Shown piece after piece: positions 18,192 through 18,501 of a DNA stretch of 35,821 nucleotides (within the stretch, counting starts at the first letter, position 1; every line of letters starts with the position of its first letter). The translations under genes were made by a program, and so were the position numbers. Below the pieces are notes generated by a model that worked only from the letters and a program-made list of their open reading frames with translations, was not told the DNA's origin and made no database searches. The stretch comes from a virus (Duplodnaviria > Heunggongvirae > Uroviricota > Caudoviricetes). The stretch is taken from IMG/VR virus record IMGVR_UViG_2698536369_000023. One strand, given 5' to 3'.

Positions 18192-18267
18192 GGCCCTTTA
18201 GCTCAGTGGTGAGAGCGAGCGACTCATAATCGCCAGGTCGCTGGTTCAAATCCAGCAAGGGCCACCA
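18192..18267 (+). tRNA. tRNA with anticodon CAT (Ile2/Met type)
   Basis: Cloverleaf foldable by eye: acceptor GGCCCTT/AAGGGCC, anticodon loop CTCATAA, T-loop GGTTCAAATCC, 3' CCA encoded. Confidence 0.85.
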
Positions 18268-18268
18268 G

Positions 18269-18345
18269 CCGCCACTAGCTCATCAGGAAAGAGCGTCAAC
18301 CCTTTAAGTTGAGTGTGCGAGGTTCGAGTCCCCGGTGGCGGTCCA
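18269..18345 (+). tRNA. tRNA with atypical anticodon loop CCTTTAA (UUU/Lys by canonical positions, C at position 33)
   Basis: Perfect 7-bp acceptor stem CCGCCAC/GTGGCGG, D-stem GCTC/GAGC, anticodon stem TCAAC/GTTGA, T-loop TTCGAGT, CCA encoded; one A-C mismatch in the T-stem. Confidence 0.6.
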
Positions 18346-18347
18346 GT

Positions 18348-18423
18348 GCCGACTTAGCTCAGTAGGTAGAGCAACTGACTTGTAATCAGTAGGTCACCAG
18401 TTCGATTCCGGTAGTCGGCACCA
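18348..18423 (+). tRNA. tRNA-Thr (anticodon TGT)
   Basis: Acceptor GCCGACT/AGTCGGC, anticodon stem-loop ACTGA-CTTGTAA-TCAGT, T-loop TTCGATT, CCA encoded. Confidence 0.8.
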
Positions 18424-18426
18424 TAT

Positions 18427-18501
18427 GCGGGCATCGTATAATGGCTATTACCTCAGCCTTCCAAGCTGATGATGCGGGTTCGATTCCCGCTGCCCGCTCC
18501 A
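18427..18501 (+). tRNA. tRNA-Gly (anticodon TCC)
   Basis: Acceptor GCGGGCA/TGCCCGC, anticodon stem-loop TCAGC-CTTCCAA-GCTGA, T-arm GCGGG-TTCGATT-CCCGC, CCA encoded. Confidence 0.8.

Follow-up and report, generated by a model that had tools for sequence, protein, structure and literature searches.

We describe here a cassette of four tandem tRNA genes at positions 18192–18501 of IMG/VR virus record IMGVR_UViG_2698536369_000023, a 35,821-nucleotide (nt) stretch of DNA, hereafter the window, which is a lambdoid (Rac/Qin-like) prophage of Escherichia coli. The cassette has a tR′-like terminator on one side and the P21-type holin, lysozyme and Rz lysis genes on the other, and ARAGORN found exactly four tRNA genes in the whole 35.8-kb window. 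CCA is encoded in all four, the genes are spaced by 1–3 nt, and their scores against the Rfam tRNA model RF00005 (44.4–73.8 bits, gathering score 29 bits) are far beyond chance. The four genes, each called by ARAGORN, are as follows.

18192–18267, plus strand: tRNA1, tRNA-Ile2 with anticodon CAU (ileZ/ileX type); Rfam 72.5 bits, E = 3.5e-14; tRNA-Ile in the Prokaryotic Genome Annotation Pipeline (PGAP).
18269–18345, plus strand: tRNA2, argN-derived, with anticodon UUU and C33; Rfam 44.4 bits, E = 2e-06; tRNA-Lys in PGAP.
18348–18423, plus strand: tRNA3, tRNA-Thr with anticodon UGU; Rfam 73.8 bits, E = 1.6e-14.
18427–18501, plus strand: tRNA4, tRNA-Gly with anticodon UCC; Rfam 64.9 bits, E = 4.5e-12.

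A first-pass annotation of this DNA, made from the letters alone, had described four tandem CCA-encoding tRNAs with anticodons CAT, TGT and TCC and a second loop reading CCTTTAA, with C at position 33 of the second tRNA and an A-C mismatch in the T-stem of two of the four, and these readings hold. ARAGORN returned the anticodons cat, ttt, tgt and tcc, the second loop reads directly as C32 C33 U34 U35 U36 A37 A38, and the Rfam alignment flags the T-stem pairs A51.C63 in tRNA2 and A52.C62 in tRNA-Thr, the latter shared with the host because the gene is 100% identical to host thrU. On the identical array of NZ_CP148493.1, an E. coli chromosome that matches window positions 18100–18620 exactly, PGAP annotates tRNA-Ile, tRNA-Lys, tRNA-Thr and tRNA-Gly with 0 pseudogene flags, and the second gene thus keeps the anticodon read for it and is not called a pseudogene. 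The CAU anticodon of tRNA1 is presumably lysidine-modified and reads AUA.

The sequence of tRNA2 is CCGCCAC-UA-GCUC-AUCAGGAAA-GAGC-G-UCAAC-CCUUUAA-GUUGA-GUGUG-CGAGG-UUCGAGU-CCCCG-GUGGCGG-U-CCA. It forms a canonical cloverleaf of 7/4/5/5 base pairs (bp), at 44.4 bits against the threshold of 29, and has U8, A14, G18G19, the T-loop TTCGA, a 7-nt anticodon loop, a purine at position 37 and the 3′ CCA; of the features of a canonical elongator tRNA, it lacks U33, the U-turn nucleotide, and has C33 instead. The loop is carried on the stem UCAAC/GUUGA, and the other features of the molecule are U73, C1-G72, A51.C63, A20, C16, G39, U40 and U41. Single-sequence minimum-free-energy folding was uninformative, as the host-identical thrU gene and the ileZ gene also gave no minimum-energy cloverleaf.

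Sequence comparison shows that tRNA2 is not a lysine tRNA by descent but a recoded argN (Arg-UCG) scaffold. It is the second gene after ileZ in a post-tR′ array, as argN is in Shiga toxin (Stx) phages, and it is homologous to argN in sequence, with 84% identity to the allele of the Stx2a phage F349 and 80–82% to the 933W and phi367 alleles. Twelve of the 77 positions differ between argN and tRNA2, and 6 of these fall within the 17-nt anticodon stem-loop (Fisher p = 0.02), where the changes are U33C, C35U, G36U, a paired switch from G30-C40 to A30-U40, and G43A. The loop CUUCGAA of argN has become CCUUUAA, which is the host tRNA-Lys loop CUUUUAA but for position 33, whereas the rest of the molecule does not follow tRNA-Lys: 40 of 77 positions match overall, but none of the 10 anticodon-stem positions does. 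U34-U35-U36 is the main identity set of lysyl-tRNA synthetase (LysRS). tRNA2 has this anticodon in place of the UCG of argN, so that C35 is gone while A20 is retained, and it does not have the discriminator A73 of lysine tRNAs, which is replaced by U73 and, in one lineage, by G73. The tRNA2 stem UCAAC/GUUGA (18296–18300 and 18308–18312) is also the host tRNA-Lys stem GUUGA/UCAAU taken end for end, with G.U changed to G-C, and all 3 stem changes from argN head toward this arrangement; the likeness could be a coincidence, or could be relevant to dimeric nucleases of the Toprim type, to which the stem would look like a pseudo-palindrome.

On this scaffold C33 is strictly coupled to the anticodon UUU. 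Among the matches listed, C33 was invariant in 118 UUU-type IMG/VR loci, and position 32 varied between C, U and A. A form combining U33 with UUU was found neither in IMG/VR nor in 241 million JGI metagenome records, and the same records contained no third anticodon on the tRNA2/argN scaffold. Among GTDB species representatives, the tRNA2 scaffold was found in E. coli and Shigella flexneri only. Literature searches on ileZ/argN/argO and on prophage Lys-Thr-Gly arrays returned nothing relevant, an absence that does not prove the locus undescribed; a recoded Arg scaffold with obligatory C33 was not found described in the searchable literature, and PGAP already labels the gene tRNA-Lys.

Patterns of variation suggest that selection on tRNA2 is real but not universal. 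Across 12 distinct argN/tRNA2 alleles the cloverleaf was 95% paired versus 28–54% in slid controls, the anticodon stem was 100% paired, and both sides of a pair had changed at 7-66 (U-A/C-G), 27-43 (C-G/U-A) and 30-40 (G-C/A-U). Pair 51-63 alternates in this family between G.U, A.C and A-U, with one lineage repairing A51.C63 to A-U; therefore, the A.C ‘mismatch’ looks like a pair of wobble type common to the family. The low Rfam score of tRNA2 is likewise a family trait, because the accepted argN of F349 scores 43.0 bits, near the 44.4 bits of tRNA2. Among 59 distinct IMG/VR haplotypes, 9 of 77 sites segregate in tRNA2, compared with 9/76, 11/76 and 7/75 in the other three genes, and the flanks are mosaic. 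The tRNA2 gene is present in 798 of 5,426 complete E. coli genomes (about 15%), and only 279 of these 798 genomes have a copy at ≥99% identity.

The tRNA2 gene shares its anticodon with a host tRNA that is hit by defence nucleases and differs from that tRNA where the nuclease determinants have been mapped. PrrC classically targets tRNA-Lys(UUU), which is also the prime target of AriB of the PARIS system and a secondary target of P2-OLD. AriB cuts U36AAUC|A41, and its cleavage is abolished by U39A and impaired by A41C and U16C (PMC12409363); at the determinants U16, U39 and C40|A41, tRNA2 has C16, G39, U40 and U41. P2-OLD needs paired CNG motifs at positions 28-30 and 40-42 and cuts 3′ of the C (PMC12445682); argN has CAG/CUG at these positions and tRNA2 has CAA/UUG, so that G30 and C40 are both lost through one base-pair switch. 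The PrrC cut lies 5′ of the wobble base, at 33|34, and gives a fragment of positions 1-33, according to PMC1950546 and the introduction of PMC2275089; PMC12409363 places the cut between U35 and U36, and we followed PMC1950546, which comes from the laboratory that characterised PrrC. At the bond thus adopted, tRNA2 has C33 on the 5′ side. The N6-threonylcarbamoyladenosine modification (t6A) is reportedly a positive determinant for PrrC. By prediction, tRNA2 should lack t6A37, because the E. coli TsaBCDE enzymes cannot install it on U33C tRNA in vitro (PMC8887486). C33 could thereby act twice against PrrC, at the scissile position 33|34 and by preventing t6A37.

The thrU copies of related cassettes vary as well. 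In two loci (L010 and L053) G42U43 is replaced by UC or CC, which breaks the pairs 27-43 and 28-42 and alters the CAG (CNG) motif at 40-42, and this shortened stem with its altered CNG resembles the OLD-resistant phage tRNA-Thr; three further loci (L057 type) have a thrU copy with U16C and U20C. These changes at 42-43, 16 and 20 lie at positions on which P2-OLD and AriB reportedly depend, and the thrU variants would point the same way as nuclease evasion. In five IMG/VR loci (L035 type), a thrU-derived copy has the anticodon UUU through G35U, together with A26G, and the tRNA2 gene of the same loci has U4/C8/U11, the A51-U63 repair and G73; this type would be a second, independent route to UUU on a non-Lys scaffold and may represent a single lineage.

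Codon usage was compared between 54 greedily chosen open reading frames (ORFs) of the window, which are crude calls, and 45 annotated K-12 genes as host sample, with the following counts per 1000 codons.

AUA: prophage 9.2, host sample 2.0; 4.6-fold.
ACA: prophage 14.2, host sample 4.6; 3.1-fold.
GGA: prophage 12.5, host sample 6.5; 1.9-fold.
AAA: prophage 37.4 (late genes 30.6), host sample 29.2; 1.3-fold overall, about 1.05-fold in late genes, 1.5-fold in early genes.
AGA: prophage 7.5, host sample 0.8.
AGG: prophage 6.7, host sample 0.5.

The GC content is 49.9% in the prophage versus 52.6% in the host sample, and the A-ending codons AUA, ACA and GGA are served by low-copy tRNAs in the host. 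Codon supply accounts well for ileZ, thrU and glyT, and it accounts poorly for a Lys tRNA, given the host's median of six tRNA-Lys genes; it also leaves the absence of Arg tRNAs from the cassette unexplained, the largest excess being that of AGA and AGG (9- to 13-fold), for neither of which the cassette has a tRNA. Of the functions floated in the first-pass annotation, codon compensation is therefore supported for the Ile2, Thr and Gly tRNAs, whose codons AUA, ACA and GGA are enriched, and not for the Lys tRNA, and a suppressor role finds no support, the anticodon being UUU in a 7-nt loop, without stop-codon complementarity in the normal frame. A ‘specialised function’ is the part of that earlier reading worth keeping; the promoter at 18154–18182, the argN ancestry, the host origin of the Thr and Gly genes and the link to tRNA-Lys-directed nucleases had been missed.

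In general terms the locus is familiar, being a cluster of phage tRNA genes where Stx phages have ileZ-argN-argO. That Stx-phage cluster, as found in 933W, Sakai VT2 and Stx2a/2c phages, lies at the same site, preceded by Q and tR′ and followed by the late genes, with the same promoter boxes, an identical ileZ and an argN at 80–84% to tRNA2, and its argN shares with tRNA2 the cloverleaf, C1-G72, U73 and the odd 51-63 pair. The cassette of the window differs in that the loop and anticodon of argN are changed and the pair 30-40 is switched, in that copies of host thrU and glyT replace argO, and in that no stx genes follow. The cassette had been set apart at first sight from the Ile-Arg-Arg set of Stx phages, and it does differ from that set, while being its homologue in position and in part in sequence.

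The cassette is built from two modules, one consisting of ileZ and the argN-family tRNA and the other of thrU and glyT. The ileZ gene of Stx phages (Stx2a phage F349) and tRNA1 have the same sequence, and tRNA3 and tRNA4 show 100% identity to K-12 thrU and glyT, respectively. The modules recombine at the tRNA2/thrU boundary, and their combinations include ileZ-tRNA2-argO in PPompW phages, whereas phage Evi has only ileZ-tRNA2 and phi467 only thrU-glyT. Besides cryptic prophages, phages that were isolated or induced also carry the cassette. In the window, the spacers around the thrU and glyT copies are not host-like and tyrU is gone. However, in two IMG/VR loci (L022 and L076) the host spacer TCAAGTCC and then the 5′ half of tyrU directly follow the thrU copy, and this half stops at ...GCAGACTG inside the anticodon loop, beyond which the two loci diverge. 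Therefore, thrU and glyT came from the host operon thrU-tyrU-glyT-thrT by capture at the DNA level and were then trimmed, with loss of tyrU, and the cut in these two loci is possibly a recombination or integration breakpoint within tyrU. Among the glyT copies, those of 15 IMG/VR loci (L010 type) have U6-A66 in place of C6-G66, a compensatory double change, and the single-change intermediates U6.G66 and C6.A66 were found once and twice, respectively, among IMG/VR loci; therefore, structure constrains the evolution of this host tRNA after its capture by phages.

Based on these findings, the four tRNAs form a mobile cassette that lambdoid prophages of E. coli/Shigella carry and probably express strongly after induction, and we tentatively favour, at somewhat less than even confidence, a mixed function in which three of the tRNAs would supply rare codons and tRNA2 would be a nuclease-evading back-up Lys decoder. 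The Ile2-CAU, Thr-UGU and Gly-UCC tRNAs would decode AUA, ACA and GGA, which are 2- to 5-fold over-represented in the prophage. LysRS would charge tRNA2 via U34-U35-U36, and the charged tRNA could serve Lys codons while going unrecognised by the tRNA-Lys-directed defence nucleases of the host: by AriB for want of U16, U39 and C40|A41, by P2-OLD for want of C40 and the CNG motif, and by PrrC through C33, which would lie at the scissile bond 33|34 and would prevent t6A37. That tRNA2 is a natural ‘orthogonal’ lysine tRNA of temperate phages, a recoded Arg scaffold on which a fixed C33 keeps t6A37 off and whose altered anticodon stem and D-loop hide it from PrrC, AriB and P2-OLD, the three known tRNA-Lys-directed defence nucleases of E. 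coli, is possible, if on balance doubtful.

Several points weigh against this proposal. The nuclease determinants were measured on other tRNAs, namely host tRNA-Lys and tRNA-Thr for AriB and OLD and tRNA-fMet for the t6A enzymes, and C16, G39 and U41 of tRNA2 are inherited from argN, where they are already present. Without t6A37 and U33, tRNA2 should decode AAA/AAG less well, and U73 in place of A73 may lower the efficiency of LysRS. The thrU copy of the window does not differ at all from the host tRNA, which is nuclease-sensitive, and it could therefore bring a benefit only through dosage. The IMG/VR sample, of at least 120 loci, contains many near-clonal isolates. About two thirds of the genomic tRNA2 copies (474 + 45 of 798) are more diverged and include delT12 and U4/C8/U11 variants, which have D-arm lesions, carry no PGAP annotation among the matches listed and are not reported by Rfam at E ≤ 0.01; the U4/C8/U11 variant, found at other loci, also lacks the conserved U8. 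Finally, in the Stx2c phage PV98-693 (L132, about 296–372), a tRNA2-type gene has lost 12 nt, and with them the anticodon loop, and this copy, which has the D-arm of the UUU form and is flanked by ileZ and argO, both intact, is plainly a pseudogene of the family. The lesioned copies suggest weak or intermittent selection.

These lesions would be expected if tRNA2 were an inert or decaying argN derivative, carried between useful tRNAs in a tight transcription unit, in which case the function of the cassette would be that of ileZ, thrU and glyT only. Such decay, which we consider rather unlikely, would agree with the lowest Rfam score of the four, with the loss of the near-universal U33, the T-stem A.C pair and U73, with the D-arm lesions of most genomic copies that PGAP and Rfam miss, and with the anticodon stem-loop deletion in the Stx2c phage; in addition, E. 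coli has no evident need of an extra tRNA-Lys, and phage phi467 has thrU-glyT without tRNA2. However, drift fails to explain the concerted rewrite that gave a perfect 5-bp stem, the host Lys loop and a compensatory 30-40 switch, and it fails to explain the absolute coupling of C33 to UUU. The diversity of tRNA2 is not above that of the three bona fide tRNAs, its stem polymorphisms mostly keep pairing, with A51.C63 turned into A-U in one lineage, and the low score is shared by the accepted argN. Pure codon supply by all four tRNAs, for AUA, AAA, ACA and GGA, with C33 as a neutral oddity, is distinctly unlikely in our judgement. The four anticodons do all read A-ending codons and the phage genes are AT-richer; AUA, ACA and GGA are in clear excess, AAA reaches 1.5-fold in early genes, and the Thr and Gly genes, as unmodified host copies, fit dosage rather than evasion. 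But AAA in late genes is at the host level (30.6 versus 29.2 per thousand) in a host with six tRNA-Lys gene copies, and AGA/AGG, in greatest excess, go unserved, though the sister cassette carries argO. Moreover, a tRNA predicted to lack t6A37 would be a poor booster of AAA decoding (PMC8887486), and taking up host lysT, in the way thrU and glyT were taken up, would be a better route than recoding argN.

That tRNA2 acts outside decoding, or in recoding, is very improbable; the three variants of this idea are a nuclease-titrating decoy, an Arg-mischarged tRNA acting at Lys codons through A20 and the argN body, and a shifted-anticodon ochre reader in which U35-U36-A37 presents UUA, enabled by the altered turn at C33. 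The scaffold does retain A20 and the argN body, and UUA is present in the loop one base out of register; none of the three roles, however, has any evidence. E. coli arginyl-tRNA synthetase requires C35, which is lost in tRNA2. The loop is a normal one of 7 nt with A37 and A38, and we know of no precedent for frame-shifted anticodon presentation in a 7-nt loop. The AriB authors did raise the possibility that phage tRNAs, when over-expressed, compete (PMC12409363), but the AriB recognition elements that a decoy requires are absent from tRNA2.

For the mixed function that we favour, one of the closest likenesses is phage T5's PARIS-resistant tRNA-Lys(UUU) (Burman 2024; Belukhina 2025), which is also phage-encoded, with anticodon UUU, C16 and altered positions 39-41 (PMC12409363). 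However, the T5 tRNA is a diverged tRNA-Lys, its phage is virulent and has many tRNA genes in a large array, and experiments have shown the tRNA to be resistant, whereas tRNA2 is a recoded Arg scaffold of a temperate phage, has C33, and is a candidate for such resistance. Similarly, for the P2-OLD-resistant phage tRNA-Thr(UGU) (Govande 2025), the cassette offers a UGU tRNA-Thr as counterpart, here in a lambdoid phage, the type that P2-OLD restricts; the altered 40-42 CNG and the shortened stem of the resistant tRNA are shared by the rare L010 and L053 variants, and unlike it the Thr gene of the window is the sensitive host thrU. Naturally occurring C33 has a precedent elsewhere. Eukaryotic initiator tRNA-Met is the one well-known natural C33 class. 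There, C33 acts as an anti-determinant that keeps the yeast and E. coli enzymes from forming t6A37 (PMC8887486); those tRNAs are initiators of multicellular eukaryotes, whereas tRNA2 is elongator-type and belongs to a bacterial virus.

In the prophage, the integrase and DicF are followed by a ParE/PaaA2 toxin-antitoxin pair, a cI-like repressor, hok/sok, DUF968, RusA and Q, and after Q come three reverse-strand accessory genes, an insertion in the late region, and then the tRNAs, the lysis genes, HNH and the terminase. The array had been placed after a tR′-like terminator and upstream of the lysis genes (18793–20674), and the features around it agree with this.

18047–18067, plus strand: tR′-like intrinsic terminator, a hairpin with an 8-bp stem including 5 G-C pairs, then a T-run.
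18154–18182, plus strand: sigma-70-like promoter TTGCAA-17 nt-TATTAT, with 9 of 12 consensus matches; putative in function.
18793–19008: P21-type holin.
19680–20213: lysozyme.
20195–20674: Rz.

The −10 box of the promoter stops 9 nt upstream of tRNA1, and the TTGnnn and TATTAT boxes with their spacing are kept in related upstream flanks that have otherwise diverged, and also in phage 933W. In a relative (L004), the order is Q, a pR′-like (promoter-like) site, the equivalent terminator, the tRNA promoter and the tRNAs. The cassette seems to own a promoter downstream of tR′ and thus appears self-promoted, and its expression would probably be basal in lysogens with Q-dependent read-through on induction. 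Over the terminator region, 17994–18070 (plus strand) has a sub-threshold Rfam match (16.8 bits, E = 0.5) to isrK, a prophage Hfq-binding small RNA (sRNA), and PGAP calls a 36-aa ‘antiterminator’ coding sequence in NZ_CP148493.1 at the place equivalent to about 18024–18134 of the window; this may be the short pR′ leader transcript.

The accessory genes between Q and the terminator lie on the minus strand at 17048–17959, 16799–17044 and 16412–16798. The first encodes a 303-aa protein that matches the PADLOC candidate PDC-S42 (E = 3e-53) and PHROG 3243, has a hydrophobic Gly-rich stretch LLVAVMGSIKTINALGLVAGGGVAAGGVLGII, and gave no relative in Pfam or the PDB; the other two match PHROGs 26468 and 27630, families of unknown function. 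The idea that the 17048–17959 gene encodes a tRNA nuclease, with tRNA2 as self-immunity, was rejected as unsupported, as the protein has no Pfam or PDB relative and no nuclease motif; the gene is also absent upstream of the cassette in three relatives (L004, L005 and L002). Between the array and the holin gene lie an 11-bp hairpin GTCTTTCAGTC...GACTGAAAGAC at 18508–18553, a 14-bp long-range hairpin TTATGAATGATCGC...GCGATCATTCATAA at 18561–18633 with T8 after its 5′ arm, and a weak CCGC-TTTT-GCGG stem with a T6 run at 18710–18727. None of the three structures had an Rfam match, and an overlapping 77-aa ORF (18563–18796) had none in Pfam or PHROG. Elsewhere in the window, sok antitoxin RNA lies at 13861–14036 (plus strand, 117.8 bits) with an adjoining hok-like ORF at 13974–14186, the DicF sRNA at 4443–4494 (minus strand, 76.7 bits), the ParE/PaaA2 pair at 5639–6120 (minus strand), and an 830-aa early-left protein with a C-terminal Rv2179c-like 3′-5′ exoribonuclease domain (E = 3e-63) at 1308–3800 (minus strand). 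No homologue of Gam, the P2-OLD trigger, was detected among the early-left ORFs of the window.

What phages gain from tRNA genes has long been asked, and the question has come up again recently with evidence that viral tRNAs stand in for host tRNAs that defence nucleases have destroyed. To our knowledge, the proven cases of such replacement are all virulent phages with large tRNA arrays. The cassette described here is small and common, lies in temperate lambdoid phages, and holds both kinds of tRNA side by side, as the exact host copies fit a rare-codon need while the recoded tRNA fits evasion and not the codon model. It is also a natural experiment on U33. If tRNA2 were inert, the locus would be an ordinary phage tRNA cluster with a documented capture of host tRNAs. 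If the proposed function is true, tRNA2 would offer a ready-made nuclease-resistant Lys tRNA for phage engineering, and should C33 block t6A37 and PrrC yet permit decoding, one loop nucleotide would uncouple translation from modification-dependent immunity. Tentative as it is, the proposal would mean that lambdoid prophages, as well as large virulent phages, use tRNAs for counter-defence.

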